A stretch of 63,500 nucleotides of DNA, counting the filler. It is 3 parts of 3 records of this genome, joined end to end, with 100 filler letters (N's around TTAATTAATTAA, not from the genome) between each part and the next. Parts side by side here need not be neighbours in the genome. Positions count along the whole stretch, not along the records: positions 1 to 31,273 come from SRR31156797_1359; 2 more parts are not named here. One strand, 5' to 3'. This document shows, one piece after another, positions 1 to 61,806 of this stretch. Both the position numbers and the translations under genes were made by a program. The notes beneath the pieces are model-generated. The model ran no database searches and was not told the DNA's origin. It saw nothing but the letters and a program-made list of their open reading frames with translations. Every line of letters starts with the position of its first letter. Position 1 is the stretch's first letter.

Positions 1-86
1 TTTAACTAAAGATAAAATTATGAAGTTGTGTTTGTGGTTTATATAAGAACGATATGCACAATGTATTTATCGAATTGTTAGGGTAC
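1..86 (+). mobile_element. Partial attC-like recombination site (right arm and R' core GTTAGGGTAC), cut by window start
   Basis: GTTAGGGTAC (77-86) lies 16 bp before the ATG at 103. It is the exact reverse complement of GTACCCTAAC (994-1003) at the end of the same gene. Confidence 0.5.
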
Positions 87-102
87 ATAAAAAAATACAT
101 AT

Positions 103-1002
103 ATGAAACATTATTTATCAATTATTTTGGTTTTTCTATTCTTCTCTTGTGGTTCTAAGACTGTTGAAACGCATGGGGGATTAATTATCGAGGTTGAGTT
201 GAAAGGAGGTACATCTGAAGTGAACTCAGTGATTGAGCTTCTAAAAAGAAGAGTATATATTATGGGCATACAAGACCCAAAATTTAGTTACAATCAGAAT
301 GACAATCGTCTGGAAATACAACTTCCTCAGTTTAACGATTCAAGTATTTTTAAGAATTATATTCTAAAATCAGGGACTGTTGAAATATATGAAACATATA
401 ATTACAGTGAATTGTTAAAATCAATTCGTAAAGTCAATGAAATAAATAAAAACGCATTAGAAGAAATTCTAGCTGCTCCAAATACTATTTATAATAGCTA
501 TACTGATGGGTCTATTATTGGATTTTCAAAAACTAAGGATACTGCACAGGTAAGTACAATTATAGAAAGTAGAATGTTTAAAGAAACTATTTCTGATGGA
601 ATCATCTGTGTTTGGGGACATAAGGACTTTAATGGTTTATATTCATTAACAATCATTAAGAAGGGACCAATATCAAAAAAAGTAAAATCATTAATGATAG
701 AAAAGTCGCATGTAAGAAAAGGAAATCATAATGACTATTTGGTGAACCTGAGATTAAAACAAGAATATCATAAATATTGGGAAGAAATGACTAGAGAAAA
801 CATTGGGAGAGCATTAGCAATAGTTGTTAATCAGGGTGTTTTGTCATCACCATCAGTTCATTCTGAAATCAAGGAAGGATTAACATCAATTTCTGGTTTT
901 GCAAATAAAGAAGAAGCTTTAGCTGTACATTCTTTAATTACAACGGGGGAACTGCCTTCAAAGTGTGAGGTAAATGTTATATCAATAAATAACGTACCCT
1001 AA
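103..1002 (+). CDS. Lipoprotein with SecD/SecDF periplasmic P1-like domains and no SecD transmembrane core; probable cassette gene
   Basis: Lipobox LFFSC. SecD-like motifs GG..I.VE, LKRRV..MG, IQLP, W.EMTRENIGRALAIVV, SSPSV.SEI..G...ISG and TGELP. Confidence 0.75.
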   Translation: MKHYLSIILVFLFFSCGSKTVETHGGLIIEVELKGGTSEVNSVIELLKRRVYIMGIQDPKFSYNQNDNRLEIQLPQFNDSSIFKNYILKSGTVEIYETYNYSELLKSIRKVNEINKNALEEILAAPNTIYNSYTDGSIIGFSKTKDTAQVSTIIESRMFKETISDGIICVWGHKDFNGLYSLTIIKKGPISKKVKSLMIEKSHVRKGNHNDYLVNLRLKQEYHKYWEEMTRENIGRALAIVVNQGVLSSPSVHSEIKEGLTSISGFANKEEALAVHSLITTGELPSKCEVNVISINNVP

Positions 1003-1176
1003 CAAAATGTATAAATAATAGCGGTTTTTTGGGGGTGTTCGGGCGTAAAGTGTTTCAAATTTGCTCCGCCAAATCTACTGATTTGACTAATTGAAAAGGT
1101 GTAGCTTTGGCTCTTTAAAAATCAAGAAACGAAACCACATTTAAGTCCGTTACTATTCATACAAATAACGTTATAC
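994..1176 (+). mobile_element. attC-like recombination site, a long imperfect palindrome of ~183 bp
   Basis: The R''-like CCCTAAC overlaps the stop codon. Arms TGTATAAATAATAGCGG (1008-1024) and CCGTTACTATTCATACA (1147-1163) are 14/17 complementary. Inner arms are GCCAAATCTAC (1068-1078) and GTAGCTTTGGC (1101-1111). GTTATAC at 1170 precedes the next ATG. Confidence 0.6.
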
Positions 1177-1185
1177 GAAAGTATC

Positions 1186-1812
1186 ATGAAAAACCTAATA
1201 CTAAGATTATTTCTTCTTGGAATTGCTTTTTCTTGTGAAAGAGGTTCTAAAGAATCATATCCCAAAATTATTGGTGATTGGGGAGTAGATTCAACTTTTC
1301 TGACATTTTGTATAACAGATAGTGTAGCATCTTTCGTTAATGATATTGAATTTTATCCATATTCAATTGAGGATGATTCAATAATTTGTTTTAAAAAGAG
1401 CCATCTTCATAATCCAACTCTTACAAGAATAGCTTATAAAATCAATGAAGTTAATGATGAGCATTTAATTTTAGAAGACAATGGACAAATAGCATGGAAG
1501 TTTTATAGAATTCTATCTAACGATAGCTCTGTAAACTTGGAGAAAGTTTGTTTTACTTCATCATTAAGTCATGGCCGAATTCCTTCAGTAAATATTGAGA
1601 TAAATAAGGATGGTATTTGTTATGCAAGACTTCTTAGGACTGAAAATGATGGATTATTTAAAGCTAAAATAGATCGGCTTAACTTTAATAAGTTGCAAGA
1701 AAAGATTAGAGCACTTCAGATTGATTCTTTAAAACCAATATATAATTTAGAACCTGTACCTCCAGGAAATCAGACATGTGGCTTAGTGTTACTATATGCT
1801 AACTATAATTAA
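1186..1812 (+). CDS. Lipoprotein with a C-terminal DUF6438-like domain, possibly truncated
   Basis: Lipobox IAFSC and a lipocalin-like IIGDW. The C-terminal S.S.G.IPS..IEI..DG...G.F..KI segment resembles DUF6438 but ends abruptly. Confidence 0.55.
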   Translation: MKNLILRLFLLGIAFSCERGSKESYPKIIGDWGVDSTFLTFCITDSVASFVNDIEFYPYSIEDDSIICFKKSHLHNPTLTRIAYKINEVNDEHLILEDNGQIAWKFYRILSNDSSVNLEKVCFTSSLSHGRIPSVNIEINKDGICYARLLRTENDGLFKAKIDRLNFNKLQEKIRALQIDSLKPIYNLEPVPPGNQTCGLVLLYANYN

Positions 1813-1826
1813 AAAAATACGAATTC

Positions 1827-3146
1827 ATGAAAAATTGCTTTTTAATCTTATTGACCAATTTATTTATCATTAATATATGCTTTGCTCAATCAAAGGATAA
1901 AAACAATGATCATAGAGCATCATTGAATGAGTTATGGTTTTATGGAAAAACAGATAAGGCAATTACATTAACATTGAAATTATATCAACAGAATCGTTCG
2001 TTTTTTTTGTATCGTATACACGATGATCTTGCATTACAATTAGAAAAAGATAGAAAGCATCACAGACTTAAATATCTTGAGCAATTGTATAGTAAGGGAC
2101 ATATGGAAATAAATGAGATCATAACACCTATTTATTTATGGGCAAAAGCATTAAATACTAAAAATAAAAAGGAATTAATTTCTATACTGGAAGAATTAAA
2201 TAACTTTCAGAAACACTGTTCGAATTATGATTCAAAATCAGTAAGATATTCGCTTTTAATATTAAAAATATTAGATGAAGCTCATATAATTGATAATAAT
2301 AGAAGTGAAATAATATTCAGAAACATACAATATCTAACACACAAGAGCAATCAATTAATAGATAACATACACGCTGAAAAACTATCAAGGTGTAGATATA
2401 TGCTGGCATATTGTTATGATTATTTATATTCTAATGTGATTGATAAGGAGGAATATTTAAAAAAAGCTTCAGATTATAGCCCAAACTATAATGATAGATT
2501 AAACAGGATGGCTTATTTTAATGATGCTAAGTTATTGACAAAAGATATTCATGAAATTGGATACAAAACCAAATATCATAAATACCTTGTTGCTAAAAAT
2601 AGAAGAAAGGAAGCTTTAGAATTACTATGCGAAATAACATCAATTCATCCATCTGATACCAATATTAGTTCGCTCAGAAAATATTATGAGAAAACTAGAC
2701 ATGATGGTTTATTTTATTCCTATTGGGAAGAATTTATTGAAAACCAAGGGATGAATGTTCCTAATGTTATATTAAAATTCAAAAATGAAGAACTTGACTT
2801 ATCGAAGAGTTCTGACAAATGGATTTATATCGATGTATGGGGAACTTGGTGTAGTCCTTGTTGTGAAGAGTTATCAGAATTGCAATCTTTTTATTCAGAA
2901 AACAAAAATAATAACGATTCCAAATTAAAAATCTACACCTTTTCATATAAATCTCGAAATCTGACAGATTTTATGTCTAAAAACAATTATACATTTCCTG
3001 TAAGTGAAATTGACAAACAGACAAACGATTTATTCGGAATATCAGGATATCCAACTAAAATATTGATCTCACCTCAAGGTAATTATATAAAATTACCTGC
3101 TGGCAATGCATGGAAAATATTCTTGAAAAATTATCTTTTACAATAA
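1827..3146 (+). CDS. TlpA/ResA-family thiol-disulfide oxidoreductase with a helical N-terminal region
   Basis: Signal peptide. C-terminal thioredoxin fold YIDVWGTWCSPC ... GYPTKILISPQG. Confidence 0.8.
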   Translation: MKNCFLILLTNLFIINICFAQSKDKNNDHRASLNELWFYGKTDKAITLTLKLYQQNRSFFLYRIHDDLALQLEKDRKHHRLKYLEQLYSKGHMEINEIITPIYLWAKALNTKNKKELISILEELNNFQKHCSNYDSKSVRYSLLILKILDEAHIIDNNRSEIIFRNIQYLTHKSNQLIDNIHAEKLSRCRYMLAYCYDYLYSNVIDKEEYLKKASDYSPNYNDRLNRMAYFNDAKLLTKDIHEIGYKTKYHKYLVAKNRRKEALELLCEITSIHPSDTNISSLRKYYEKTRHDGLFYSYWEEFIENQGMNVPNVILKFKNEELDLSKSSDKWIYIDVWGTWCSPCCEELSELQSFYSENKNNNDSKLKIYTFSYKSRNLTDFMSKNNYTFPVSEIDKQTNDLFGISGYPTKILISPQGNYIKLPAGNAWKIFLKNYLLQ

Positions 3147-3148
3147 AT

Positions 3149-3180
3149 AAAAGTGCTACCCCCGAAGGAGTAACACCTTT
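3149..3180 (-). terminator. Rho-independent terminator between convergent genes
   Basis: Minus strand reads GTGTTACTCC-TTCG-GGGGTAGCAC-TTTT. Confidence 0.65.
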
Positions 3181-3199
3181 TAAGAACCAAAAAATATGA

Positions 3200-3517
3200 T
3201 TATTCCTTATTGGCAGCAGTTTTTGTTGATTTAACTTCAGCTTCGTAACCTAATTTTTCAATGGCTTTTTCAAGGTTTTCAGAGGTGTTTTTGTCTTCTC
3301 TAAAAGCAACAGTAACTAATTTCTTTTCCAAGTTTACGTCTACTTTTTTCACTCCTTTTTCAAAAGGAATGTTCTTCATGATTTTGTTTTTGCAACTATG
3401 GCAATCGATAGTGCATGAGTAAGTTACTTCTTTTACTTTTGGCTTTTCTTTGGCAAATGTTGTTGTCATTGTAAATGCCATAAAAAGTGCTGCGATAATA
3501 AATTTTAAATTTTTCAT
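3200..3517 (-). CDS. Periplasmic heavy-metal-associated (HMA, MerP/CopZ-like) protein
   Basis: Signal peptide, IDCHSC CxxC motif, KGVKKVDV and IEKLGY. Confidence 0.85.
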   Translation of the reverse strand: MKNLKFIIAALFMAFTMTTTFAKEKPKVKEVTYSCTIDCHSCKNKIMKNIPFEKGVKKVDVNLEKKLVTVAFREDKNTSENLEKAIEKLGYEAEVKSTKTAANKE

Positions 3518-3563
3518 TTCTATATATTTTTAGATTATACTTTATAAACTTTAATAATTTCGA

Positions 3564-5768
3564 TTACTCTTTGTCCAACGTATATTTTATACCTACATAA
3601 AACATTCTACCATAAAGTGGACCCCAAACTCTGCTGGCATCAAACTCATCACCAAAAGGATTTTGCGCATCAATAATGGCATTCTTCTGAGTGAAGTTTC
3701 CTAAGTTTTCAGCACCTGCATAAAAGCTCCATTTACGATAATTTTTGGTTACCTGAGCTAATAAATACACATACTTTTCAGAAGTATCTGGCCTTGTATT
3801 GCCAACGCTGTTTCCATCGGTAGAAGGAAGCTCCATATCCCCATGGAATTGAGCGGTAAGGTCAAAGACCCATTTGTCTAAATTGGTCCGATACGATCCG
3901 GATAATAGCCCTTTGTATTTGCTTACAAAAGGTGTTCTTCTGAGCTCGTTATTGTAGGTTGCCTGAACATCATTTATACGATAGGCTGCAGTAAAATCAA
4001 AGCGATTAAAAAGCTCGTAAGTAGCTTCAAACTGAAAAGTATTGGAATAGGATTCTCCATCGAGATTGTAAAAATGAACCTCACGCGTATTCTGATATAA
4101 ATCGGTAATTAATCGATTTTTAAAATCAGTTCTAAAGAACTCAATATTCATATTTAACTCTCTGTTCCAGATTTTAAATTTGTTCACCAATGAAATTCCG
4201 TAGTTCCAGGCTTCTTCCTGTTTAACGTTTTCTTCGAAGATCAAATTTTTTGAACTCGCCAAAAGATTGGTGTTTTCACTGATAGCATTAGGCGTTCTAT
4301 AACCCTTACCTGCACTTACACGAATGGTTGCTGCATCTAAAAAATGATACTTGGCATGTAGGCGAGGGGTGATAAAACCTCCATGAATAGAGCTATGATC
4401 GTAACGCAATCCTCCTAATAGAGTAAAATGATCTCCGGGAATATAATTGTATTCCACAAACACACCCGGCGTAAATTCTTCATATCCTACCCAATCAGTG
4501 CTTCCGTTGAAAACCGCATTGTTTTTATCATACACCATGCTCAATCCACTATTGTAGGTGTGCTGCGTATTACCAATGTACGACTGGAAAATAAAGTTGG
4601 CGTATGCATTTTGTTGATCTATATCAAATGTATTATGACCATAAAATGATTCGCGATTGAAATAATTATAAGAAACGATTGTTCCTAAACTGGTACCGGG
4701 TCTGTTAAAGAAAAAGCCATTTTTAGCAAACAGGCTTACTTTTTCAACATCTATTTCCATTCCATAAGGATCGTCATCACTGAACGAGTAACTAGAAAAG
4801 TTCTTTTGTCCTCCTTTTCTACTTTCTTTTAGGTATGAGATGCCAAATTTAGATTCATATTTTTCCGAATTATAACTCCAGCGGTTCATAAAAGTTGCCA
4901 GGTTTGAAGTAGGCTTATCCAGAAAGCCGTCGTTATTCATATCTAATTCACGAAAGTTTCCACTGACATGTGTTAAGATAGAAGAGCTTAATTTTTCGTT
5001 TACTTTAAATGAATAACTAATGTTGTTCTCTGCTTTTCCATCCTGATTTCCATAAGCGTAAATCTGTAGTTTTTCAGCGCCATCAGGTTGTTTATACTGC
5101 ACGTTAATTTGCCCGGTAATGGATTCGTAGCCATTTTTTACCGCTGCTGTTCCCTTACTTACCTGAACAGATTCCATCCAGCTACCCGGAATATAATCCA
5201 ATCCAAATGCGGTTTCGGCACCTCTTAGAATGGGAATATTTTCCAGATTAATTTGAGAGTACCTGCCCGATAAACCTAACAAGCGAATTTGCTTTACCCC
5301 AGATACAGCATCAGAATAGGAAACATCCACCGAGGCATTGGTTTCGAAGCTTTCGGATAGGTTACAACAAGCAGCTCGCGCTAATTCTTTACCACTTACA
5401 TTTTGAACATAAAGCGGATCAAGCATAGAATAATTGCTGGAAGCTACACGAGTTGCCACCACTACTTCATCTAACTCTGCACCTGGTTTTAAAAAAACGG
5501 TTAGTTCAGAATTCGAGTTAATAGAGATCGTATCGTTTTGATAGCCAACAAAGCTAAATACCAATAAATTCTGCTGCGATTGATCGATGATGAATTTTCC
5601 ATTTTCATCGGTAATGGTACCAATCGTTGTACCTGCCCAATAAACATTCACGCCTGTAAGCGGAACGGTTTTGTTATCTTTTTTTTCGACGACTTTTCCT
5701 TTGATCTCACCAGCAAATGAAGAGACGCTCAAAATCATCGAAAAAACTATAATTAAAAGTTTTTTCAT
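3564..5768 (-). CDS. TonB-dependent receptor of the metal-associated type
   Basis: Signal peptide MKKLLIIVFS, CarboxypepD_reg-like N-terminus, plug with RAACCNLSESFETNASVDV, and a C-terminal barrel strand GRMFYVGIKY. Confidence 0.9.
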   Translation of the reverse strand: MKKLLIIVFSMILSVSSFAGEIKGKVVEKKDNKTVPLTGVNVYWAGTTIGTITDENGKFIIDQSQQNLLVFSFVGYQNDTISINSNSELTVFLKPGAELDEVVVATRVASSNYSMLDPLYVQNVSGKELARAACCNLSESFETNASVDVSYSDAVSGVKQIRLLGLSGRYSQINLENIPILRGAETAFGLDYIPGSWMESVQVSKGTAAVKNGYESITGQINVQYKQPDGAEKLQIYAYGNQDGKAENNISYSFKVNEKLSSSILTHVSGNFRELDMNNDGFLDKPTSNLATFMNRWSYNSEKYESKFGISYLKESRKGGQKNFSSYSFSDDDPYGMEIDVEKVSLFAKNGFFFNRPGTSLGTIVSYNYFNRESFYGHNTFDIDQQNAYANFIFQSYIGNTQHTYNSGLSMVYDKNNAVFNGSTDWVGYEEFTPGVFVEYNYIPGDHFTLLGGLRYDHSSIHGGFITPRLHAKYHFLDAATIRVSAGKGYRTPNAISENTNLLASSKNLIFEENVKQEEAWNYGISLVNKFKIWNRELNMNIEFFRTDFKNRLITDLYQNTREVHFYNLDGESYSNTFQFEATYELFNRFDFTAAYRINDVQATYNNELRRTPFVSKYKGLLSGSYRTNLDKWVFDLTAQFHGDMELPSTDGNSVGNTRPDTSEKYVYLLAQVTKNYRKWSFYAGAENLGNFTQKNAIIDAQNPFGDEFDASRVWGPLYGRMFYVGIKYTLDKE

Positions 5769-5927: not shown

Positions 5928-6419
5928 TTAACAAGCAATTTTAAACGTATGATGTTTAGTGATGATTTGCCTTCCGTTGGTATTTATGAGTGGTTTCTCG
6001 CGCGGTATTTCACCGGAAAAATCTTTCTCAAGCAATAAGGCATGAAAATAATCTAATTGAAGAATAGTTTCTTGTTGTAATAAAGAAACCAGGATGGGTT
6101 TGGGTGTTTGTTGCCTCTCTGAAAACTGAAAAGCACTGGTTAGTTTTACAATTTTGTTAGAGCTATGGTGATTATCGCAACAATCATGATCACTAGTTTC
6201 TTCAGCATGACAACACTGGTCATTGTGATGGAAATGATCATGGTTAATAATCGCATTCTCTTCACAAATATCTTCTGTAGAATCAATGAATACAGAATAA
6301 ACTAACTCGTGGGCATGAATACAATAATGATAGAAAAATACCAAACCACTGGTGCTTAATAAAAATAAGCCCAAAGTAATCAAGGTCATGATGCGTTTAT
6401 GTATTTCTTTCACTATCAT
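5928..6419 (-). CDS. HYC_CC_PP-like His/Cys-rich protein
   Basis: Hydrophobic N-terminus followed by HYC, two CC pairs and His runs (HDHFHHNDQCCH, HDCCDNHH). Lies directly upstream of the TBDR. Confidence 0.7.
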   Translation of the reverse strand: MIVKEIHKRIMTLITLGLFLLSTSGLVFFYHYCIHAHELVYSVFIDSTEDICEENAIINHDHFHHNDQCCHAEETSDHDCCDNHHSSNKIVKLTSAFQFSERQQTPKPILVSLLQQETILQLDYFHALLLEKDFSGEIPREKPLINTNGRQIITKHHTFKIAC

Positions 6420-6678: not shown

Positions 6679-9183
6679 CTAAAAAATTAAACTTCCGGTT
6701 TGATAAATGATAAAAGATAACAACCAGGCCAAGCCGGTAGTATAAAAAATGGTAAATACGGCCCATTTCCACGAACCTGATTCACGCCTTATAGTAGCGA
6801 TTACACCAATACAAGGGAAATAAATCAATACAAAAATCAGGAAGCTGATAGCTACCAATGGTGTAAAAGATTGTTCTCCTTTGCTATTTGTGGCATGTTT
6901 TAAATTGTCTTCAAGACTTAGTGGTTCATCTGTTTCTAAATCTGTTTTTTCTGAGTGATAGATAACAGCCATTGTGCTAACTACTACTTCTTTAGCAGCA
7001 ACTCCGCTTAAGATACTAACGCCCATTTTCCAGTCAAAACCAAGAGGACGTATAGTCGGCTCAATAAAGTGGCCAATCATGCCGATGTAAGAACCTTTTT
7101 GTTCCTCACTTAACTTTGATACTTCAAGATCCTGAATTTTACTTTCGATGCCACTAGTTAAACGGATTTTGATACTATCCGGTTCATTTGAATTGGTGAT
7201 CTCAAGCTGTTGAGATTGCAATGTGGCAATATTCGCATCAAAATCTTGTGAATATTCAATGTCTTTTGGAAAGTTCTGAAGGAACCATATGATAATGGAC
7301 GCAATCATAATGATACCACCTACTTTTTTCAGATACTGTGCCCCTTTATTCCACATATGTCTGATTGTTGATCGTAGGGTAGGCATTCGGTAAGGAGGTA
7401 GTTCCATTACAAACGGAACATCTTTTTCTCGAAATAAAACCTTTCTGAAAACTTTGGCAATAACAATCGCCAATATAATTCCCAAAGTATAAATACTGAA
7501 TAATACTGTTCCTGAATGCTCTGGGAAGAATGCACCAATAAAAAGTATATACACCGGAAGACGAGCACTGCAGGACATAAATGGATTAATCAGCATAGTA
7601 ATTAATCGGTTGTTTTTATCTTCGATGGTTCTGGTTGCCATAATAGCAGGTACATTACAACCAAATCCCATGATTAGCGGAATAAAGGATTTTCCATGCA
7701 AGCCCATTTTATGCATAAGTTTATCCATAATAAAGGCAGCCCGGGCCATATATCCCGTATCCTCCATAAAGGAGATAAAGAAGAACAGGATTAAAATGTT
7801 AGGTAGAAATACCAAAACGCCACCCATTCCATTTATAATACCATTGATCAATAAATCTTTAAACGGCCCTTCATTCATAATGCCATCTAAAAAGGTCATC
7901 AAAAATTCAACTCCTTTTTCAATCAAGGCCATAGGGTATTCTCCCAAAGTAAATGTACTTTGAAACATAAGCCACATGAAGAAGAAAAAGATAGGAAAGC
8001 CAAATAATTTATGCGTTAAAAAGGTATCTACAATTTCCGATTTTCTGACTTTAACTCTGGGTGACTCTGAATAAGTCTCTTTTAAGGCACCGGAAATAAA
8101 GCCATATTTAGCATCAGTAATTAAAGTTTCACAATCATCGTTTAATTCAGCTTCAATTTTTTTAATGACCGCTTTATTTTCTTTTCGTAAAGAATCATAT
8201 TCTGGATTATTGAAGATGTCAGTACAAAACTCCTTATCCTGCTCTAAAAACTTTAAAGCAAGGTAACGAGGAGATACATTTTTAGGTAAATCATACTTCG
8301 GAAATATTTCATCCTGTAATCGCCATAAACCCTTTTCTATTGGTTGGCCATAATGAATGTAAACCCTGCGTTTGCTTAAATTAATATCTTCGTAAACATC
8401 AATAACTTTGTTGAATAATTTATCAATACCTTGTCGCTTAGAGCTAATGGTAGGAACAAAGTTAATGCCGAGCATCTTGCCTAAGGCTTCATGATCAAAG
8501 CTATCTCCTCTTCTTTGAAGCTCATCGTACATGTTTAAAGCCACAACAGCTTTTACATCCATGTCGATAAGTTGTGTGGTTAAAAACAGGTTTCGCTCAA
8601 TGTTTGATGAATCAATTACATTGATAACAATATCCGGCGTTTCATCTATAATATGCTTTCTTACAAATAGTTCTTCGGGTGAGTAGGCGGATAAGGAATA
8701 AGTTCCAGGTAAATCAACAATGTTAAAGGTATAGCCATTGTGATGAAAAACACCTTCTTTCGAATCAATAGTAACCCCACTGTAATTACCCACATGCTCT
8801 TTGGCTCCGCTTACATAATTGAATAAGGTTGTTTTACCACAGTTCGGATTTCCAACTAAGGCAACATTTATGGTTTTTCTTTTTTCTAAAGCAGTTTCCC
8901 TGAAAACTTCATCCGTAATAGTTCCCTCAAATGGGGTTGAAGCAATTTCTTTGGCTTCTTGTTTTGAAATTATTTCGACTAAAGTAGCCTCACTTCTTCT
9001 CAAGGATACTTTATAATCCATTATTTCATATTCAATCGGGTCCTTTAAAGGTGCATTTTTTACAACTTTAACTTTTTTCCCTTTAACAAAACCCATTTCA
9101 ATAATACGTTTGCGAAAAGCTCCATGGCCTTTCACCTTAACTATTATTGCTTCTTCTCCAGTATTTAGTTCAGATAAATTCAT
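6679..9183 (-). CDS. feoB: Ferrous iron transporter FeoB with fused N-terminal FeoA
   Basis: FeoA segment (RIIEMGFVKG, APLKDP), G1 GNPNCGKT, G3 DLPG, gate motifs GFGCNVPA, PFMSCSAR and MELPPY. Confidence 0.95.
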   Translation of the reverse strand: MNLSELNTGEEAIIVKVKGHGAFRKRIIEMGFVKGKKVKVVKNAPLKDPIEYEIMDYKVSLRRSEATLVEIISKQEAKEIASTPFEGTITDEVFRETALEKRKTINVALVGNPNCGKTTLFNYVSGAKEHVGNYSGVTIDSKEGVFHHNGYTFNIVDLPGTYSLSAYSPEELFVRKHIIDETPDIVINVIDSSNIERNLFLTTQLIDMDVKAVVALNMYDELQRRGDSFDHEALGKMLGINFVPTISSKRQGIDKLFNKVIDVYEDINLSKRRVYIHYGQPIEKGLWRLQDEIFPKYDLPKNVSPRYLALKFLEQDKEFCTDIFNNPEYDSLRKENKAVIKKIEAELNDDCETLITDAKYGFISGALKETYSESPRVKVRKSEIVDTFLTHKLFGFPIFFFFMWLMFQSTFTLGEYPMALIEKGVEFLMTFLDGIMNEGPFKDLLINGIINGMGGVLVFLPNILILFFFISFMEDTGYMARAAFIMDKLMHKMGLHGKSFIPLIMGFGCNVPAIMATRTIEDKNNRLITMLINPFMSCSARLPVYILFIGAFFPEHSGTVLFSIYTLGIILAIVIAKVFRKVLFREKDVPFVMELPPYRMPTLRSTIRHMWNKGAQYLKKVGGIIMIASIIIWFLQNFPKDIEYSQDFDANIATLQSQQLEITNSNEPDSIKIRLTSGIESKIQDLEVSKLSEEQKGSYIGMIGHFIEPTIRPLGFDWKMGVSILSGVAAKEVVVSTMAVIYHSEKTDLETDEPLSLEDNLKHATNSKGEQSFTPLVAISFLIFVLIYFPCIGVIATIRRESGSWKWAVFTIFYTTGLAWLLSFIIYQTGSLIF

Positions 9184-9361: not shown

Positions 9362-10129
9362 ATGAACGAAGAATTGGAATTTAATCAGGTATATAATAAA
9401 ATTCAGGAGTTGCTTAAAAATGGAAAGGCTAATATTTCTGTTCTGGAGGAAGAAGTGGATGTGGATTTACAATTGGAATATTTTAAGCAGTCGAAAAAAT
9501 TATATAAAACAATAGATAAACCTGCTGTAATTCAGGAAAAGGATGAACTTTTTAATGAAGAGACAAGTCTCGATCGAAAGAAGGAATTGTTATCATCACT
9601 TGCAAAAATTGAGGATCCGGAGGCATATAGAGCCATCGAAAATTACAAGGATAATGCAGATGTGGAATTAGAGCAATGGGCGAAGTTGGCTTTTCAGGAA
9701 TCTAAAATGGTGTTAGAGACATCTTTATTAGGAGAAGCGCCAATTTTTATTTCAACAGGTTTGGGTGGTCAAGGTAATAAGCTGAGGTATTTTATTGTTT
9801 TAGTCGCCAATGAAGAGGTGGCTCTTGAATTGTGGCAAAAGGAATTAGTAGAGAAAGAGTTGAATTTTGTTTTCCAAAGTAAGAATGGTCTTATTGAAAA
9901 CATAGATGACACCGATTCCTTTTTAATGATTACAGCTTTGCTGCCCATTGAAGAAAATATAAAGAGTACGCTTAGTCCTGTTGTTAAAGAATGCAACGAG
10001 ATGGGTAATTTTCTTCGTGATTCCTTTATTGTAACCAATGTTAAGAAGCTGGATGTGGAAGAAATTCAAGGTATGATAGATTCCAAAGATTCCATAAATA
10101 ATGAAGATAAATTAGAGGATATAGAATAA
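9362..10129 (+). CDS. Conserved Bacteroidota hypothetical protein (acidic)
   Basis: 255-aa ORF with an ISTGLGG..NKLRYF motif. TACATTTG promoter element at ~9332. Confidence 0.7.
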   Translation: MNEELEFNQVYNKIQELLKNGKANISVLEEEVDVDLQLEYFKQSKKLYKTIDKPAVIQEKDELFNEETSLDRKKELLSSLAKIEDPEAYRAIENYKDNADVELEQWAKLAFQESKMVLETSLLGEAPIFISTGLGGQGNKLRYFIVLVANEEVALELWQKELVEKELNFVFQSKNGLIENIDDTDSFLMITALLPIEENIKSTLSPVVKECNEMGNFLRDSFIVTNVKKLDVEEIQGMIDSKDSINNEDKLEDIE

Positions 10130-31273: not shown

Positions 31274-31373
31274 NNNNNNNNNNNNNNNNNNNNNNNNNNN
31301 NNNNNNNNNNNNNNNNNTTAATTAATTAANNNNNNNNNNNNNNNNNNNNNNNNNNNNNNNNNNNNNNNNNNNN
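31274..31373. other. Artificial contig spacer
   Basis: N runs flank TTAATTAATTAA, which has stops in all frames. Base composition shifts across it. Confidence 0.97.
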
Positions 31374-40921: not shown

Positions 40922-43900
40922 ATGAATTTCAACATATCGAAGTTTTCTTCAGGTTTATGGATTGCGATTTCATCTGCAATTGTGCTCATCTTTTTTTACC
41001 TGTTTTATGTAGAAATTTATATGAAACAGCAGGAAAAGGATGTTGTTTCAACCCGGTTTCGTGTGCTTGACCAAATGGGGAAAAACATCAGCAAACGCTA
41101 TGATATCTTAAAACAAAACGCGGAGGACCTCAGTGGCAAGGTAGCGCTGGATACGGCATCAAATAAACGTTTAGCCGAAAGCATAAACAACAGGAAAGAT
41201 ATCAACAAAAAACTTGAAGTAAAATCCGTTACCGCTGTAAACGACACCATAAATGACAAATCATGGAAATCCGGCACAAAACAGCTCTCATTTTATATTA
41301 AAATCATAAACCAAAATGAACCGGATTCGTCCTCAAAAGGCATCATGACTGTAGAATCATCCTATGAAAATCTGATAAACGGGCTTGAGCGGAAAGATAT
41401 TTTCGATGGTATTCTACTGATCAACAATAAATACCAGGTGGTGCACAATAACCTCAACCAGGAAATAATCCTTACAAAGGGTGATGGTGATGAAGCCTCC
41501 CCTATCATGGGAAAGGAAGCCAAATCAAGGACAGATAAAGAGAAGGAAATACATGATTACATGAAGTCGGAGATTGGCAATATATTTTCCGGAGAAGCCA
41601 TCGATATTGAAATTTCCAACAGTGCCTATAAAGCTTTTGTAAAGCCTATTGAGGTTAACAACCAAACCTGGTATGCCATTGGGCTGATGCATAAATCAAC
41701 GTTTAATGCCACCATCAGAAGCATTGAACCTTCGTTTGTTATCCTGCTCTCACTTGTGCTGGTCTTTATCATCCTTGGCCTGCCCTTAATCAAACTCGCT
41801 GTAATTTCCACATCAGATCAACTGGATACCTCCACCATCATCAGCAGTGCGCTTTCAACCATCCTGGGTGGATCAATCATTATCCTTTTTCTCTTTTTCT
41901 TATCCCAAAATTATAAACGCAATTCCAACATAAAACGTCATCTAACCGTATTGTCGGATTCAATTGAAAATCATTTTTTGTCTGAAATAAACAGTGCGTA
42001 TAAGCAAATGGTTGATTATGATAAAAATCCTTTTTGCTTGGTAAAACATGCCGGGGTTTATAAGGTTAATGAATCACTGCTGAACAGCACAAAAAATTCA
42101 AATGTCCTGGCTGTAATTCAAGGCAACAAACCCATTTTGCTTAACGACCGCGATTCATGGACTTTGTATCCAAAATCCGGGCTTGTGGCGAAAGATATTT
42201 TAAATATCCCAGAACCATTTTACCCATCAATTTACCCTTATGGCGATTATTACTTTTGGGTAGATAAAAACGGCAGACAGAAAGCGTACTACACGCCTTT
42301 CAACGAATTTGGCACCTTGTCCGACTTAAGTTCGAGGGACTATGTGAACAAAAAAGACGAATGGTTTTTACCCAATAGCAAAAATGAAAAATTCAGGCTT
42401 GAGTCCATTGTTTCGGTAAGTTCCGGCTCTGTAAAAGCAGCCATTTCCAAACCAAGCAATTTACTGGGAATCCCGGTCATAGCCATCTCATCAAAGCTTA
42501 CATCCATCATCAATACGATCCTTCCCAAAGATTACGCATTTTGCATCATTGATAAAACCGGTAAAGTATGGTTTCACTCCAACGAAAACCTGAACCTTAA
42601 GGAGAACTTTATAGAAGAATGTAACAGCGACAGCGAACTAAAATCACTCATCTATGCCAATGTGGACAACACCCTTGAAGTGGATTACTACAACAAAAGG
42701 CACAAAATTCATATCAGCCCCATAAACAACATACCGCTCTACCTCATCACCATGCATAACATGCAGGCGGAGAGCTCCTTCCAGAAGCAGGCCGTCACCC
42801 TTACACTTGCACTGCTTGGTTTTCTGCTGCTGACCCTGTTTGTACAAATCATCGCGCTGTTGATTATTGAACGAAAATACCGGCTTGCATTAAACCGGAA
42901 TTTGATCATGAAACTCACCCGCCCCATCAGCAGGCTCAACGGCGAATACATTTACCTTGTAAAACTATATCTTATTGTTGTTTTTCTGATCATCCCATTT
43001 CTTATCATTTATCAGGATTTGGCCGCCATAATGATCATCTTCGCCATGGTAATCATGATGTTTTGGTATTCATATTATATCCTGAACCAGAATGAACTGA
43101 AGAAAAAACATCGCAAAAGATTTGGCCAGTTCAACTTTGTCTTGCTACTCATTGTAACTGTGGTTAGCAGCATCCTTTTACAAGATGAAGGATGGTGGAA
43201 AATCTTGCTCTTTGAAGGCGTTTTGGGCACTGCCATTCTCCTGGCGCACCTTTTCGTAAGAAAAGAAAAACAGGATTCCTCTGGATACTGGAAAAATTAC
43301 ACCTACTTTTTTCTCATGGTACTAATCCTTTTCGGGATATTCCCCACCCTCAAATTTTATGAGCTGGCTTATAAAACTGAAGCTGAAATCCGGGTGAGGC
43401 ATATGATGTATGATTTTGCAAATCAAAAAGAGAAAAGGAACCTGGACATGCACAACTACTTTTCAAAAGTTAACGTGAGGGATAGCGCCAGATCTCATAT
43501 TGAAGAAATATATACCTCGCGTAAAAAAAGGGGTATTTACGGAGATATGATTCATGGGCTGAAACTCCGCAATAAGAAAGTCCCGGATACATTGGATTTA
43601 AAGAACGGTTGCGAAATGATGATTAAAGATTCGATTTATAGTAAGAAGTTTATTGCACAGTTGAGGATCGGTTCAAATGAAGAAAAGATAATGATTGTAA
43701 ATGTTTCGATCGACTCGATTAACAGCAAAAATTTCAGTAATAGGCTGATCATCGATTCCAGTGCCCCAAACAAATTTAGTGAACAAGTGGCCATCGATAC
43801 AATCGTAAGCAATAATTCGAGCCCGTGGGAAAACCTGATCAAATTCTTCCGCCCTTATTATGATAATTATATGGTGGAAAATAAATACCTGCTTCACGAA

Positions 43901-45379
43901 AGAGCCAACGATAGAAATATAGCCTGGTATCTTACAGACAATGACAAAAGTTTAACCCTCGTTTATCCTAGCCTTACCAATAATTTTTCACTCGAAGAAA
44001 TAGAATACAATGCTGTTTCTGCAGAACTACCGGAGCTCTGTTTGTACCTTCCGTTTAGTTTTAATGGAATGTCCGGGACGCATGAATGGGTGTTGAATGT
44101 GATTTTCTGGATCATGGTTGGTATGTTTATCTACCTTTTTTATGCCCTGATCAATTACAGCATTTCACAAATATTTGCCCGCAGGATCATCACCAACTTC
44201 CATTACCAGGATTTCGGCAGAATACTCCATCAACAAAAACTGGCCAACAAAGACATCCTGGTTTACAGGCTTTCCAGACGGGATCACTCAACAGCATTCC
44301 GTGATGATTTCATAAAAACCTATGGCAGCCTGGCCATCGACACATCTTCAGCTGATAAAATGTCCAAAACACAGCGGCATATCGATAGCCTCATACGTAA
44401 ACGGACAAAGTTAAATGAAACAGTTGCTCAGGAAACCTTAACTCTGCTCATAGATCATTTTGACATGGGTTTTGAACTAGCTGATCTTTTCATCCAAAAA
44501 TTGGATGTGGTCAGGAAATACCTAAAAAGGAATGATATCCACCTGGTGATTTTTTCGCAATTGAAACCTGGAGTAATTCAAAAATACTACAGGGAAGAGG
44601 CAGACAAACTATTAGAAGAGAAAATTGGCGACCCGGAAGGCATCAAACTGCAGCTGGAAACATGCAAAAATATCATCAATCAGTTGGACGAACTCATGTT
44701 TGCACTGCTAATCACTTCGCTACCGGTTTTATACCAGAGGCCTGAAAAAGACATCAAAAAATATTGCACCGAAAAACCGAGGCGCATTAGCCATGAAGCA
44801 CTGATCAAAGGTGAACTATCTGCCAGCGATTACCTGATGCACTATCAGGAGGCACTGTTAGAATACAAATCAGGATACATTGATGCAGAAAACATATTAG
44901 AAGGCGAAGAATTGATCATTACCAAAATCAATACGCTGGCCGATAAGTATTACAGCGATATTTTCGAGAGCTGTACCGCTGAAGAAAAATACTTACTTTT
45001 TGATATGGCCCATGACCAAATTGTAAATTCTAAAAATGAAGAAGCCATAAACAGTTTACTAAGAAAGGGATTGCTGGTGAAAAAGTGCTACAAGATCAAT
45101 TTTATGAATATGAGCTTTCGCCGATATATCATGTCGAAGATCAGCAAACCGGAAAAGCTTAAAATTGAATCCGCACTGGGAAAACCAACCGGAACCTGGC
45201 AGGGTTATCGCAATGCATTGATACTGGTCATCGTGGCCCTGTTTATTTTTATTGCTTTGGCCAACCAGGATTTCCTTGATAACCTGAAAAGCCTTTTCGT
45301 GGCTCTTGGCGGTATCATTGCAGTGATCACCAGCGTACTCCGTATGCTGAGCCAAAAAAACAAGCCGGCTTCGGATTAA
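40922..45379 (+). CDS. Large multi-pass membrane protein with Cache-like domains and a cytoplasmic C-terminal domain
   Basis: 1485 aa with many TM segments. Cache-like LSSRDY and F.IIDKTGKVWFHS. C-terminal Y..IF..C..EEK.LL.D.A.D..VN.KN...I..LL.KGLL...MN.SFR. Confidence 0.65.
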   Translation: MNFNISKFSSGLWIAISSAIVLIFFYLFYVEIYMKQQEKDVVSTRFRVLDQMGKNISKRYDILKQNAEDLSGKVALDTASNKRLAESINNRKDINKKLEVKSVTAVNDTINDKSWKSGTKQLSFYIKIINQNEPDSSSKGIMTVESSYENLINGLERKDIFDGILLINNKYQVVHNNLNQEIILTKGDGDEASPIMGKEAKSRTDKEKEIHDYMKSEIGNIFSGEAIDIEISNSAYKAFVKPIEVNNQTWYAIGLMHKSTFNATIRSIEPSFVILLSLVLVFIILGLPLIKLAVISTSDQLDTSTIISSALSTILGGSIIILFLFFLSQNYKRNSNIKRHLTVLSDSIENHFLSEINSAYKQMVDYDKNPFCLVKHAGVYKVNESLLNSTKNSNVLAVIQGNKPILLNDRDSWTLYPKSGLVAKDILNIPEPFYPSIYPYGDYYFWVDKNGRQKAYYTPFNEFGTLSDLSSRDYVNKKDEWFLPNSKNEKFRLESIVSVSSGSVKAAISKPSNLLGIPVIAISSKLTSIINTILPKDYAFCIIDKTGKVWFHSNENLNLKENFIEECNSDSELKSLIYANVDNTLEVDYYNKRHKIHISPINNIPLYLITMHNMQAESSFQKQAVTLTLALLGFLLLTLFVQIIALLIIERKYRLALNRNLIMKLTRPISRLNGEYIYLVKLYLIVVFLIIPFLIIYQDLAAIMIIFAMVIMMFWYSYYILNQNELKKKHRKRFGQFNFVLLLIVTVVSSILLQDEGWWKILLFEGVLGTAILLAHLFVRKEKQDSSGYWKNYTYFFLMVLILFGIFPTLKFYELAYKTEAEIRVRHMMYDFANQKEKRNLDMHNYFSKVNVRDSARSHIEEIYTSRKKRGIYGDMIHGLKLRNKKVPDTLDLKNGCEMMIKDSIYSKKFIAQLRIGSNEEKIMIVNVSIDSINSKNFSNRLIIDSSAPNKFSEQVAIDTIVSNNSSPWENLIKFFRPYYDNYMVENKYLLHERANDRNIAWYLTDNDKSLTLVYPSLTNNFSLEEIEYNAVSAELPELCLYLPFSFNGMSGTHEWVLNVIFWIMVGMFIYLFYALINYSISQIFARRIITNFHYQDFGRILHQQKLANKDILVYRLSRRDHSTAFRDDFIKTYGSLAIDTSSADKMSKTQRHIDSLIRKRTKLNETVAQETLTLLIDHFDMGFELADLFIQKLDVVRKYLKRNDIHLVIFSQLKPGVIQKYYREEADKLLEEKIGDPEGIKLQLETCKNIINQLDELMFALLITSLPVLYQRPEKDIKKYCTEKPRRISHEALIKGELSASDYLMHYQEALLEYKSGYIDAENILEGEELIITKINTLADKYYSDIFESCTAEEKYLLFDMAHDQIVNSKNEEAINSLLRKGLLVKKCYKINFMNMSFRRYIMSKISKPEKLKIESALGKPTGTWQGYRNALILVIVALFIFIALANQDFLDNLKSLFVALGGIIAVITSVLRMLSQKNKPASD

Positions 45380-52946: not shown

Positions 52947-53378
52947 ATGTCAAATAGTATGAAAAATCAGATTATTCATTTGAAACCGCTTGAATTTGAA
53001 TCGGCCTTTTCGTCGGATGAAAAATGCCTTGAGTTCCTGGCCGGAGAAAAATGGAAAGCCGGTTATTCCTGCCGGAAATGCGGACATACCAATTACTGCA
53101 AAGGGAAAACCCCATTTTCAAGACGTTGTACACGCTGTAAGCACGACGAATCTGCAACCGCACATACGATATTTCACCGGTGCAAAATCAACCTGACGGA
53201 AGCTTTTGAAATAGCATACATGGTTTGCAGCACGCCCAAAATCTCAAGTTACAACCTGTCAAGAAAGCTGGAAAAACGCCAGATGACCTGCTGGAAATTC
53301 AAAAAGAAAATCACGGAATGTATCGAACGCAACGGGGAGTTGCAGTTTATCGAAGGATCCGAAAAAACAGACAATTAA
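52947..53378 (+). CDS. Stand-alone IS1595-type Zn-ribbon plus HTH protein, no DDE domain
   Basis: F.SDEKCL.FL...KW..GY.CRKC...CTRC...SATA.TIFH, then ISS..LSR.L..RQ.TCW. Ends at 143 aa. Confidence 0.75.
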   Translation: MSNSMKNQIIHLKPLEFESAFSSDEKCLEFLAGEKWKAGYSCRKCGHTNYCKGKTPFSRRCTRCKHDESATAHTIFHRCKINLTEAFEIAYMVCSTPKISSYNLSRKLEKRQMTCWKFKKKITECIERNGELQFIEGSEKTDN

Positions 53379-56775: not shown

Positions 56776-56823
56776 GGGTGCAAGATGGGATTTGAACCCA
56801 CGACCCCTGGAACCACAATCCAG
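56776..56823 (-). tRNA. tRNA-His(GTG), 3' part only (cut by contig end)
   Basis: Minus strand: CTGGA-TTGTGGT-TCCAG anticodon arm, GTGGGTTCAAATCCCAT T-arm and acceptor CTTGCACC-C. Confidence 0.9.
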
Positions 56824-56923
56824 NNNNNNNNNNNNNNNNNNNNNNNNNNNNNNNNNNNNNNNNNNNNTTAATTAATTAANNNNNNNNNNNNNNNNNNNNN
56901 NNNNNNNNNNNNNNNNNNNNNNN
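56824..56923. other. Artificial contig spacer
   Basis: N runs with TTAATTAATTAA. GC content jumps sharply after it. Confidence 0.97.
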
Positions 56924-57075
56924 GGCATGTCGTTCATTGCCCTTAGATGGGAACTGGACCGGCGATTGCCAGGCGGGCGGCGATTGTCAGGCAGTCCAAC
57001 CTGGGGCACAATCGGGACCGAATCATAGAACCGGAGATCCGAATAGGACGAGCCGGAAAAAATGGGAGCGAAACG

Positions 57076-58659
57076 ATGAGGCAAAAACGCTTCGGGCATT
57101 TATTCATTTGTTTTTTGATTTCATTTGTTTTGGCCGCGCCGGCCAGTGCCGGCTGGTACCAGAACGCCAAGTTCGGCTATGCCATCAATCTGCCGGACGG
57201 CTGGCGCATCGCCGAGGACGCGGCCAACGATACCGTCACCGCGACCCGGCCCGACAACAATGTCGAGATCGCCGTGCAGGCGCTTGATTTGCAGGGCCAG
57301 ATCGGATCGGCCGATCAATTGGCCGACCTGTTCACCGCCAACGTTTTCAACGGTTTCAAGTTCCTGTCCAAGCAGCCCGACGACGTCAACGGCATTCCCG
57401 GTGTCGTCGCCGCCTATTTGGGCCAGAACAACGGCCAACAGGTGGTCATCGGCGCTTTTTACCTGGTGCAGCCGCCCCATGGCTTCGTCATGTATGCCGC
57501 CATGCCGGCGGAACAGGCGCAAACCCTGTCGAAACAACTGGACCCGGTTTTCGATACCTTCCAGCGCCTCGGCGCGGCACCGCAGAAGCAGGCGGCGGCG
57601 CCGGCGGCACCGGTGGCTCCGGCGCCCGCCCCGGCCCCGGCGGCGGCCGAGCCGCCGCTCGATCCGATCGACGCGCCCTATGTTTCGGTCGGCGAGGCCC
57701 GGGTCCGCGAGCGCCCCGACGTGCGGGGTAAGACCGTGCGTAAGCTCAAACCCGGCGAGGAGATCTACGCACTCGGCCGGGTCCAGGGAACCAAGTGGAT
57801 CCTGGTGGCGCGCAACGACGAACCGATCGGCTATGTGCTGGACCGTCAGATCCGCGACAAGGCGAAGGCGGCGCCGGCCGCGCCCGTCGTTGCCGCCGCC
57901 GCGGCGCCGGCCCCGGCCGCGGTGCCGGCCAAGAACGTCCCGGCAGGTGTCGACTTCGGAAGCTACTTCGCGCTGATCATCGGCAACACCGGGTACAAAC
58001 ATTTTCCGGAACTGGTAACGGCGGATGACGACGCGCGAGCCGTTGCCGCCCTGCTTGGCGATGCCTACGGTTATCAAACCCAGGTTCTGATGGATGCGAC
58101 CCGCAACCAGATCATCGACGCCATCGAAGGCTATCGCGAAAAGCTGGGCGCGGGTGACAACCTGCTGATCTATTACGCCGGCCACGGCTGGTTGGATAAA
58201 AAGGCCGAGCGCGGTTACTGGCTGCCGATCGACGCGAAGCCGGACAGCAAGGCCAACTGGGTTTCCAATACGACCATTACCGACAGCATCAAGGCGATGG
58301 ACGCCCGGCATGTGATGATCGTCGCCGATTCGTGTTATTCCGGCACCCTGACACGCGGCATCAAGATCAAGCGCAGGGATTCGGAATATTTCAAACGGCT
58401 GGCGGCGAAGAAGGCGCGCGTCGCCATGACGTCGGGCGGGCTTGAACCGGTCAGCGATACCGGCGGCGGCGGCCATTCGGCCTTCGCCAAGGCCTTCATC
58501 GACGTGCTGGCCCAAAACGACGGCATGATCGACGGGACCGAACTGTTCAAGCGCATCGAACGGCCGGTCAAGTTGAACGCCGATCAGACACCGGCGTTTT
58601 CCGACATCCGCAAGGCCGGCCACGAGGAAGGCGGCGACTTTATTTTCGTGCGGCGTTAG
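57076..58659 (+). CDS. Secreted caspase-family (C14) peptidase with PsbP/DcrB-like and SH3b-like domains
   Basis: Signal peptide ending ASA, Y.N..FGY.I.LPDGW, Pro/Ala linkers, VRERPD...W......GYV, ALIIGN..Y, and catalytic YYAGHG and ADSCYSG. Confidence 0.85.
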   Translation: MRQKRFGHLFICFLISFVLAAPASAGWYQNAKFGYAINLPDGWRIAEDAANDTVTATRPDNNVEIAVQALDLQGQIGSADQLADLFTANVFNGFKFLSKQPDDVNGIPGVVAAYLGQNNGQQVVIGAFYLVQPPHGFVMYAAMPAEQAQTLSKQLDPVFDTFQRLGAAPQKQAAAPAAPVAPAPAPAPAAAEPPLDPIDAPYVSVGEARVRERPDVRGKTVRKLKPGEEIYALGRVQGTKWILVARNDEPIGYVLDRQIRDKAKAAPAAPVVAAAAAPAPAAVPAKNVPAGVDFGSYFALIIGNTGYKHFPELVTADDDARAVAALLGDAYGYQTQVLMDATRNQIIDAIEGYREKLGAGDNLLIYYAGHGWLDKKAERGYWLPIDAKPDSKANWVSNTTITDSIKAMDARHVMIVADSCYSGTLTRGIKIKRRDSEYFKRLAAKKARVAMTSGGLEPVSDTGGGGHSAFAKAFIDVLAQNDGMIDGTELFKRIERPVKLNADQTPAFSDIRKAGHEEGGDFIFVRR

Positions 58660-58675
58660 GTCAGTCTCGAAGGAC

Positions 58676-58716
58676 AAAAGGCCCGGGCGGTTGCGCCGCT
58701 CGGGCCTTCCGTTTTT
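58676..58716. terminator. Bidirectional terminator
   Basis: AAGGCCCGGGCGG-TTGCG-CCGCTCGGGCCTT between convergent genes. Confidence 0.75.
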
Positions 58717-58730
58717 GCCGGTTTGTGCGC

Positions 58731-61762: not shown

Positions 61763-61806
61763 TGGTCGTTCCTAATAAGCCAACTTGTTTTTGCCGCGCC
61801 TGCTTT

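Follow-up and report, generated by a model that had tools for sequence, protein, structure and literature searches.

Integrons are the textbook gene-capture system of Proteobacteria, and the locus described here raises the question whether a gene at the edge of a Bacteroidota contig is carried by a mobile cassette of the same kind. The window, by which we mean the whole stretch of DNA that was analysed (63,500 nucleotides (nt), filler included), is made of three joined separate pieces with a G+C content of ~33% (1-31273), ~42% (31374-56823) and ~63% (56924-63500), and only the first piece belongs to a Saccharicrinis-like genome. An earlier note, written from the letters alone, had assigned this contig to Bacteroidota and had read its first open reading frame (ORF), ORF1, together with the palindrome behind it as an integron-like gene cassette. 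The first statement is correct, the organism being Saccharicrinis, order Marinilabiliales, Bacteroidota. As to the second, we propose that window 78-1170 is probably an isolated integron-type mobile cassette with a 180-nt attC-like site, lodged in the leader of an operon of ORF2 and a TlpA gene and similar to the single attC cassettes known as SALINs.

A unit replaced as a block in a near-identical genome

Our comparison set comprises 77 loci, gathered by a genome scan with homologues of ORF3, the TlpA gene, and the locus closest to the window, L001, is a 5.75-Mb uncultured Saccharicrinis chromosome (Marinilabiliales, Bacteroidota). Window 1-81 matches L001 8220-8300 at 96% and window 1169-13143 matches L001 9343-21317 at 97.7% over 11,976 nt, and between these flanks the two genomes hold unrelated units, one of 1093 base pairs (bp) at window 78-1170 and the other of 1048 bp at L001 8297-9344. 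Identity ends past CGAATT[G/A]TTAG and restarts at CGTTATACGAAAG. The earlier note had described a discrete cassette with ends at G77|T78 and G1170|T1171, and L001 switches units exactly at these points; the block is thus replaced where its ends had been predicted. The slot turns over, the same position holding different cassettes in near-identical, conspecific genomes, and a natural case of two different cassettes at an identical G|TT point in ~98%-identical genomes is new. The parts of the unit are as follows.

1..77, plus strand: left flank, resident intergenic DNA or 5' leader, its last base being G77 of the left GTT; 96% identical to L001 8220-8300 over window 1-81
77..86, plus strand: left junction GTTAGGGTAC, with a probable crossover at G77|T78; 78-86 would be the cassette's own R'-derived end
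78..1170, plus strand: putative cassette of 1093 bp, made of a 25-nt leader (78-102), ORF1 and the attC-like site; swapped as a block in L001
994..1003, plus strand: R''-like box GTACCCTAAC, holding the TAA stop of ORF1 (1000-1002)
1004..1007, plus strand: unpaired spacer of 4 nt (best-scoring geometry 4/6 nt)
1008..1024, plus strand: L''-like arm, pairing with 1147-1163
1025..1146, plus strand: variable centre, including the inner arms 1068-1078 and 1101-1111; no similarity to the centre of the L001 site
1147..1163, plus strand: L'-like arm, pairing with 1008-1024
1164..1169, plus strand: unpaired spacer of 6 nt (best-scoring geometry 4/6 nt)
1170..1176, plus strand: R'-like core GTTATAC, with a probable crossover at G1170|T1171; identity with L001 restarts here

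Re-reading of the sequence confirmed every coordinate that had been given for the unit. GTTAGGGTAC at 77-86 returns as its reverse complement at 994-1003, and bases 78-86 perfectly complement 994-1002; the perfect 10-bp inverted pair described earlier as bracketing the ORF is present with the stop codon inside it, and only its length needs correction, its true extent being 12 nt (75-86 and 994-1005). The outer arms (1008-1024 and 1147-1163) form Watson-Crick pairs at 14 of 17 positions, and the three mismatches are all wobbles, two of them of the G-T kind on the bottom strand, as had been said, and one on the top strand. The inner arms (1068-1078 and 1101-1111) pair at 10 of 11 positions and are also paired in computed folds. 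The core boxes CCCTAAC and GTTATAC each agree at 6 of 7 positions with the consensus RYYYAAC and GTTRRRY, and both the AAC and the GTT triplets are present; the GTT at 1170 lies 16 nt upstream of the ATG at 1186. The site had been called unusually long, and so it is, with 180 nt for that of the window and 194 nt for its L001 counterpart.

The two units share one architecture. The first nine bases of the L001 unit, TTAGCTGTT (8297-8305), perfectly complement AACAGCTAA (9154-9162), which overlaps the stop codon; its R''-like box, AACAGCTAAC, has the geometry of that in the window, and the R stems of both consist of nine perfect pairs followed by one bottom-strand wobble. Behind the R'' box of L001 an imperfect palindrome ends at the GTT that is common to both alleles. 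Both leaders are short (25 nt in the window, 30 nt in L001) and both ORFs are sense-oriented. A circular cassette carries one site, R''-L''...L'-R', and recombination at G|TT linearises it, separating the TT end from the complementary R''. The earlier note had stated this geometry correctly, in that the leading end of an integrated cassette complements its own R''; this fits recombination of attC with attI, and the complementarity is 9 of 9 in both cassettes.

Taken within the window alone these features are not beyond chance, and it is the comparison with other genomes that gives the site its significance. In window 1-31000 we count 15 perfect inverted repeats that are 12 nt or longer and lie within 1500 bp, where Markov shuffles give 8.7 (range 4-18), the 10-mer GTTAGGGTAC with at most one mismatch is found only at its two places in the window against 1.5 expected, and TTAG 9-nt inverted pairs in general show no enrichment (8 observed against 11.9). 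Among the background loci, a 9-nt partner no more than 1100 nt away exists for only 17 of the 3904 TTAG sites. The L-arm score of the window lies above all background TAAC...GTTA pairs (662 of 662), that of L001 corresponds to P = 0.006-0.03 against such pairs, and spacers of 4/6 nt score best in the window for each of the three stem lengths tried and in L001 for 10 and 15 bp, 2/4 nt being best there at 12 bp. Folded in the form of the excised circle, the bottom strand of the window site reaches -22.8 kcal/mol (z = -2.72), and none of 200 shuffles is as low. Over the window and L001 sites together the wobbles favour the bottom strand by 7 to 2, which is only suggestive of strand choice.

The same bracket around other genes

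Whether other genes show the GTTnnnnnnn / nnnnnnnAAC complementarity was the test that the earlier note had itself named, and the outcome is positive in L001, L003, L005, L006, L009 and L018. In the 77 loci and the window we searched for a GTT plus seven bases, at most 120 nt before a start codon, whose AAC-terminated complement falls between positions -15 and +60 relative to the stop, and compared the counts with those obtained after shuffling the seven inner bases 200 times. Among 4262 GTT 10-mers, seven have a perfect partner against a shuffle mean of 0.8 (maximum 4), and with at most one mismatch the count is 27 against a mean of 13.3 (maximum 22); 0 of 200 shuffles reach either value. The bracket is enriched in these other genomes, and the probable cassette of the window belongs with a wider set of similar ones in Bacteroidota, a phylum for which integron surveys have recorded almost none. 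The perfect cases are listed here.

window: ORF1
L005: 372-854
L009: 2086-2673
L018: 9194-9844
L003: TlpA gene
L006: TlpA gene
L061: one case

The TlpA genes of L003 (4509-5883) and L006 (151-1536) are bracketed by GTTACCACCA and TGGTGGTAAC, and that of L018 (9971-11350) by the same bracket with one mismatch, its second box being TGGTGGTATC; these are unrelated genomes, and their TlpA genes have the same cassette ends. The placing of R'' around the stop codon, as in the window, recurs in L005 and L018 and, with the box TGGTGGTAAC, in L003 and L006. Many homologues of ORF3 lie on contigs of 1.4-2.5 kb, as expected if assemblies break at cassette sites.

L003, a 9.2-kb contig (1-9198) of Confluentibacter sediminis DSL-48 (contig25), is a cassette array over its whole length. 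A conserved repeated module of ~100 to 250 nt, ending in ...GGTTATACAAGT|GTT, stands ahead of every unit, and in six of seven consecutive units the opening ten bases complement the ten that come just after the ORF at 9 or more of 10 positions. Among the proteins encoded are a GyrI-like protein, TlpA, a DUF4369-redoxin and an outer-membrane beta-barrel protein. In the middle of the contig stands a G+C-richer unit on the minus strand, with an ORF of 310 amino acids (aa) of no known family and an XRE-like gene. This ORF (P0231) was tried as a candidate recombinase and dropped, since Pfam (at 1e-5), NCBIfam and the Protein Data Bank (PDB) all gave no match; L009 796-1779, a second candidate, likewise has no Pfam match at 1e-5 and no NCBIfam match.

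Besides those of the window and L001, sites measure 77-181 nt, and some in L003 reach ~350-367 nt. The site of the L018 cassette is 129 nt long and has a 21-bp stem with one bulge (z = -2.85; 1 of 200 shuffles), and that after the TlpA gene of L018 folds at chance level and matches the expected R'' at 8 of 9 positions. In minimum-energy folds the L001 site has a 2-nt bulge and the L018 site a 1-nt bulge. A MAFFT alignment of seven sites aligned the R boxes and not the L arms. In four of six aligned sites (window 1164-1172; L003 ~5998-6005 and ~8087-8094; L005 ~969-976) AAC stands before the R' GTT and forms the palindrome AACGTT with it, and ACC takes its place in the other two. The 12-mer TAGCGGTTTTTT is common to the window site (1019-1030, near the inner end of the L'' arm) and the L018 site (~9876-9890), by chance or by distant relatedness.

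Two Flavobacterium loci, L005 and L009, were considered as long arrays and rejected, since most of their structured spacers are terminators and end complementarity is seen in just the first two L005 units. Over 1 to ~19500 both carry 17-20 small same-strand genes of unrelated functions at the same chromosomal place, up to an FGGY kinase; the gene content of this variable region is only partly shared and it is mostly devoid of attC-like spacers. Upstream of the L018 cassettes, at 7722-8440, lies a nucleotidyltransferase / HEPN pair followed by a terminator, and the intervening ~670 nt contain no ORF of at least 50 aa.

Cargo genes, flanks and surroundings

The genes in and behind the unit, with two further features of the window, are these.

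103..1002, plus strand: ORF1, 299 aa, predicted lipoprotein with a SecDF periplasmic P1-head domain and without the membrane part
1102..1109, plus strand: TAGCTTTG, a TAnnTTTG motif and possible internal promoter for ORF2, a lead only
1171..1812, plus strand: ORF2 unit, a 15-nt leader and an ORF (1186-1812) of 208 aa for a DUF6438-like lipoprotein; no attC after it
1798..1826, plus strand: possible degenerate 5' end of a TlpA cassette, GCTAACTATA then ATTAAAAAAA, joined to the end of ORF2
1827..3146, plus strand: ORF3, 439 aa, TlpA-family thiol-disulfide reductase
31274..31373 and 56824..56923: linkers between the pieces, each 44 N, TTAATTAATTAA and 44 N

ORF1 matches SecDF_P1_head (5.8e-15) and SecD_1st (1.3e-4) in Pfam and parts of SecDF models in NCBIfam, far under the curated cut-offs, and its nearest Atlas clusters are Bacteroidota proteins with SecDF_P1_head only (score 0.97); a signal peptide with a cysteine was recognised by eye. 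A collection of 5.8 billion proteins contains one homologue of similar length, P0001, which is 74% identical. The C-terminus of P0001, SINNVP, is identical to that of ORF1 (979-1002), the part that the R''-like box encodes, consistent with constraint on this box at the DNA level. A genome scan with two peptide patterns, from ORF1 and P0001, gave 279 pattern matches and no relatives, and ORF1 appears to be absent from species-representative genomes as far as these two patterns reach. A plasmid search with ORF1 found only true SecD/SecDF genes.

The cassette gene of L001 (8327-9162) has a frameshift in an A-run near 8447-8455 that divides it into pieces of 43 and 240 aa, either by a homopolymer sequencing error or as a pseudogene; intact homologues are 265-288 aa long (P0111, 288 aa; P0112, 287 aa). 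The language-model Atlas puts it near Abi_alpha (0.95), and no match was found in Pfam, PADLOC, PHROGs or PDB sequences, nor in a plasmid search with P0111. Gordonia phages encode a hypothetical protein that is 32% identical to it.

Past the right junction, ORF2 is 97% identical in L001 and matches DUF6438 at 4.5e-6, under the curated cut-off, and ORF3 matches AhpC-TSA, Thioredoxin_8 and Redoxin and has 108 homologues that their source names assign to the TlpA family. A reading of ORF2 as the next cassette is not supported: the expected R'', GTATAAC, occurs only inside ORF2, at 1310. No attC-like site follows either ORF2 or ORF3. At 1798-1826, GCTAACTATA-ATTAAAAAAA aligns with the GTTACCACCA-ATTAAAAAAA that stands upstream of TlpA in L003, L006 and L018, agreeing at 6 of 10 core positions. 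We infer that ORF2 and ORF3 may be degenerate units derived from cassettes that have lost their sites and that, if any array exists, it would extend rightward and not leftward.

The earlier note had placed the unit at the end of an array extending to the left, which the L001 genome does not support. There the 8.2 kb before the slot are taken up by ordinary genes (GH127 glycosidase, ArsR regulator, thioredoxin, DsbD-like, ArsP), with neither an integrase nor a cassette array among them, up to a divergent operon that encodes an ECF sigma factor, an anti-sigma factor of the zf-HC2 type and a protein of 430 aa without a known family. A GATAAA/TTTATC 6-bp pair seen by eye in the left flank was considered as a short upstream attC and rejected, folds of window 1-84 and L001 8216-8303 giving z values of -1.1 to +0.45.

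TAnnTTTG is the -7 promoter motif of Bacteroidetes. It occurs at L001 8203-8210, 87 nt before the junction and ~10 nt before the place of window base 1, and is no more than a lead to a resident promoter; in the window it is found 71 times against 75.7 expected, a chance frequency. That there is no room for a promoter before the next ATG is true of the 16 nt themselves and not of the 166-nt site, which holds TAnnTTTG at 1102-1109. A scan of 1-3600 for sigma-70 promoters and terminators gave counts at chance level, and its sole terminator-like match, a hairpin at 3149-3180 on the minus strand, was set aside as belonging to a converging heavy-metal-associated (HMA) gene.

Downstream of ORF3 a Pfam scan shows housekeeping genes, among them feoAB, nusB, yajC and coaE. 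ARAGORN reports no tRNA gene in the window, and the second piece ends (56780-56823) in a sequence, GGGATTTGAACCC, that by eye resembles part of a minus-strand tRNA gene cut by the contig end. Elsewhere in the window, the second piece has a 1485-aa ORF at 40922-45379 with no Pfam match at 1e-4, and a 143-aa ORF at 52947-53378 shows only the zinc-ribbon domain of IS1595-type transposases. No Rfam family passes its gathering threshold anywhere in the window, Rfam being without the attC model of IntegronFinder, and sub-threshold matches in 1-1400 are all to unrelated families.

Readings of the locus and known systems

Based on these data we propose that the cassette would consist of a promoterless ORF for a SecDF-P1-head lipoprotein and a 180-nt attC-like site in the order R'' box, 4-nt spacer, L'' arm, variable centre, L' arm, 6-nt spacer and R' GTT. 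As a circle, the cassette would have recombined site-specifically with a G|TT that stands 16 nt ahead of the ORF2 start codon, within the 5' leader of the resident operon of ORF2 and TlpA. The left end would then carry the TTAGGGTAC of the cassette itself, which complements the cassette's R'' at the stop of ORF1. The bottom strand would be the one that folds, an IntI-type integrase acting in trans would catalyse the insertion, and transcription would presumably start at a resident upstream promoter. A short-leader ORF with a 3' site, G|TT ends that complement R'' and an L''/L' palindrome with unpaired spacers are marks of an integron cassette, and all of these are found here; a single attC-like site at a GTT (5'-GWT-3'), with no integrase or other att site nearby, is what characterises a SALIN, and the stretches scanned agree with this too.

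Several results weigh against this reading. The length usually quoted for attC is 57-141 nt, much as in the earlier note, and the sites of the window and L001 exceed it. The L stem of the window has no bulged (extrahelical) base in minimum-energy folds and contains only a 1x1 mismatch. As integrated, the site (994-1176) is no more stable than its shuffles (z = -0.22 for bottom-strand DNA, +0.15 for top-strand DNA and -1.12 for RNA), and for the L001 site in the excised-circle form z is only -1.24 (bottom strand, reached by 20 of 200 shuffles) or -0.82 (top strand). The base at the left junction of L001 is A, not G. Window 1-31000 has no second site of this type, an array being at least two attC. 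No empty site is found in any of the 77 loci; ORF2, the sigma and anti-sigma genes and that of the 430-aa protein (P0110) do not adjoin TlpA homologues in the other 76 loci, which therefore offer no empty site for comparison. These loci were gathered by TlpA homology and are not a random sample of Bacteroidota. Finally, the earlier note had seen no integrase, and none came to light: Pfam shows no Phage_integrase or other tyrosine recombinase in 56 of the 85 window ORFs of at least 90 aa, in 12 L001 ORFs, or in 53 of the 64 ORFs of L003, L005, L009 and L018, where the 11 left out are TlpA homologues and L009 ORFs judged by position to duplicate those of L005. A complete integron has intI beside attI and an array, and no integrase, attI or promoter Pc was identified in the stretches scanned.

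The same cassette logic could be served by another catalyst, a Bacteroidota recombinase other than IntI, for example of the XerD family as in rAID-1, with sites that only resemble attC. We hold this to be unlikely, and it is the alternative to which we give most weight. It would agree with the lack of an integron integrase adjoining any of the five contexts examined, with atypically long sites (129-194 nt, and ~350-367 nt in L003), with the window L stem devoid of a bulge, with the statement of a 2022 survey that its earlier study had found only In0 in Bacteroidetes (PMC9024848), and with rAID-1 arrays, which combine a XerD-family recombinase with integron-like repeats (bioRxiv 10.1101/471110). 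The GTT/AAC triplets and the crossover position are nevertheless those of integron sites, and the scanned ORFs reveal no XerD-like gene nearby either.

The remaining explanations do without cassettes. The slot could be an ordinary hypervariable one, its alleles swapped by homologous recombination in the flanks and its repeats incidental or acting as terminators or attenuators. Only two alleles were seen, inverted repeats of 12 nt and more abound in this AT-rich DNA (15 against 8.7), TTAG 9-nt pairs show no enrichment (8 against 11.9) and folding is at chance level, all of which suits such a slot; left unexplained are the 9-base complementarity of both unrelated inserts to their own stop regions, their common 4/6-nt spacers and same terminal GTT, and the bracket enrichment in other genomes, and we regard the explanation as improbable. 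The alleles may still have spread from strain to strain by homologous exchange. Another candidate is an invertase that flips ORF1 between 75-86 and 994-1005: a perfect 12-nt inverted repeat brackets the gene, and Bacteroidales commonly have invertible regions. This is very hard to sustain when the repeat differs between the alleles as part of the swapped block, the block runs 165-180 nt past the right arm in both genomes, no invertase gene was found among the scanned ORFs of the window and L001, and both genomes have the sense orientation. Equally slight is the probability that the features coincide by chance and have no role in mobility: within the window alone none exceeds shuffles, and against this stand the block swap in L001, the TTAG and L-arm backgrounds, the L003 array and the bracket enrichment.

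If the integron-type cassette that we favour is what the window holds, it might belong to something larger. Bacteroidota could have a widespread, unannotated pool of integron-like cassettes with long sites (~130 to >350 nt) and no canonical bulges, turning over at G|TT hotspots, a generalisation that we put forward tentatively and with some doubt. Its extent, across Marinilabiliales, Flavobacteriales, Cytophagia and metagenome-assembled genomes of Bacteroidia, with the 440-aa TlpA reductase as a widely spread cassette, is a possibility that we would hold no more firmly. Standard attC models may miss long bulge-less sites, and sites so missed could explain a survey result of In0 only, or could point to a non-IntI recombinase. 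A large environmental phylum would then hold a cassette pool that current models may under-detect, two cassettes at the same genomic G|TT would bear on the recently proposed attG route of cassette spread, and sites of 129-194 nt would offer concrete material for testing what integrases require. The cargo is informative in itself: a stand-alone SecDF P1-head lipoprotein, an Abi-alpha-like protein and periplasmic thiol-disulfide reductases.

Bacteroidota figure among the integron-bearing phyla in one review (PMC8618304), and the 2022 IntegronFinder survey recounts that an earlier study had found only In0, that is, an integrase without recognisable attC, in Bacteroidetes, and reports one complete Salinibacter integron (PMC9024848). 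Among the papers that our searches listed, none has a title or abstract on cassette arrays in Flavobacteriia or Marinilabiliales, and supplementary tables, such as those of PMC9024848 and of the SALIN preprint, may list CALINs or SALINs in Bacteroidota. Phage-defence genes have been described in integron cassettes, one of them with Abi-alpha homology (bioRxiv 10.1101/2024.07.02.601686). The rAID-1 arrays are a precedent within the phylum for integron-like arrays with repetitive intergenic sequences, and they differ in having a conserved XerD-family recombinase gene and immunity genes (bioRxiv 10.1101/471110), neither of which appears among the ORFs scanned here. The locus resembles fused integron cassettes (PMC4670013) in that ORF2 and ORF3 look like units that came from cassettes and lost their attC, and in that their 14-nt junction is like a degenerate 5' end of the TlpA cassette, a likeness drawn from one alignment only with 6 of 10 core positions. 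With CALIN or sedentary arrays (PMC9024848) L003 shares at least seven same-strand units and repeated modules ending in GTT, six of seven being self-complementary, whereas the window has one intact site followed by two site-less units, and L005 and L009 have mostly terminators between genes.

The closest counterparts are integron cassettes and SALINs. Like integron cassettes, the unit has a promoterless ORF with a short leader, a palindromic 3' site with AAC...GTT, a G|TT crossover and an end complementing its own R'', and here too, between the window and L001, the site sequences diverge and the architecture is kept; unlike them, it has a site of 180-194 nt (to ~360 nt in L003), no bulge in the window stem and no array at the locus. 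SALINs are single attC cassettes put by an integrase into attG (5'-GWT-3'), expressed near a resident promoter and excisable (Loot et al., bioRxiv 10.1101/2022.09.11.507474). A lone cassette away from an integrase, sense-oriented at a GTT close downstream of what may be a resident promoter, is what we find in Saccharicrinis, and it departs from the SALIN in its Bacteroidota host and in the presence of two cassettes at an identical point in near-identical genomes, which implies a hotspot or turnover.

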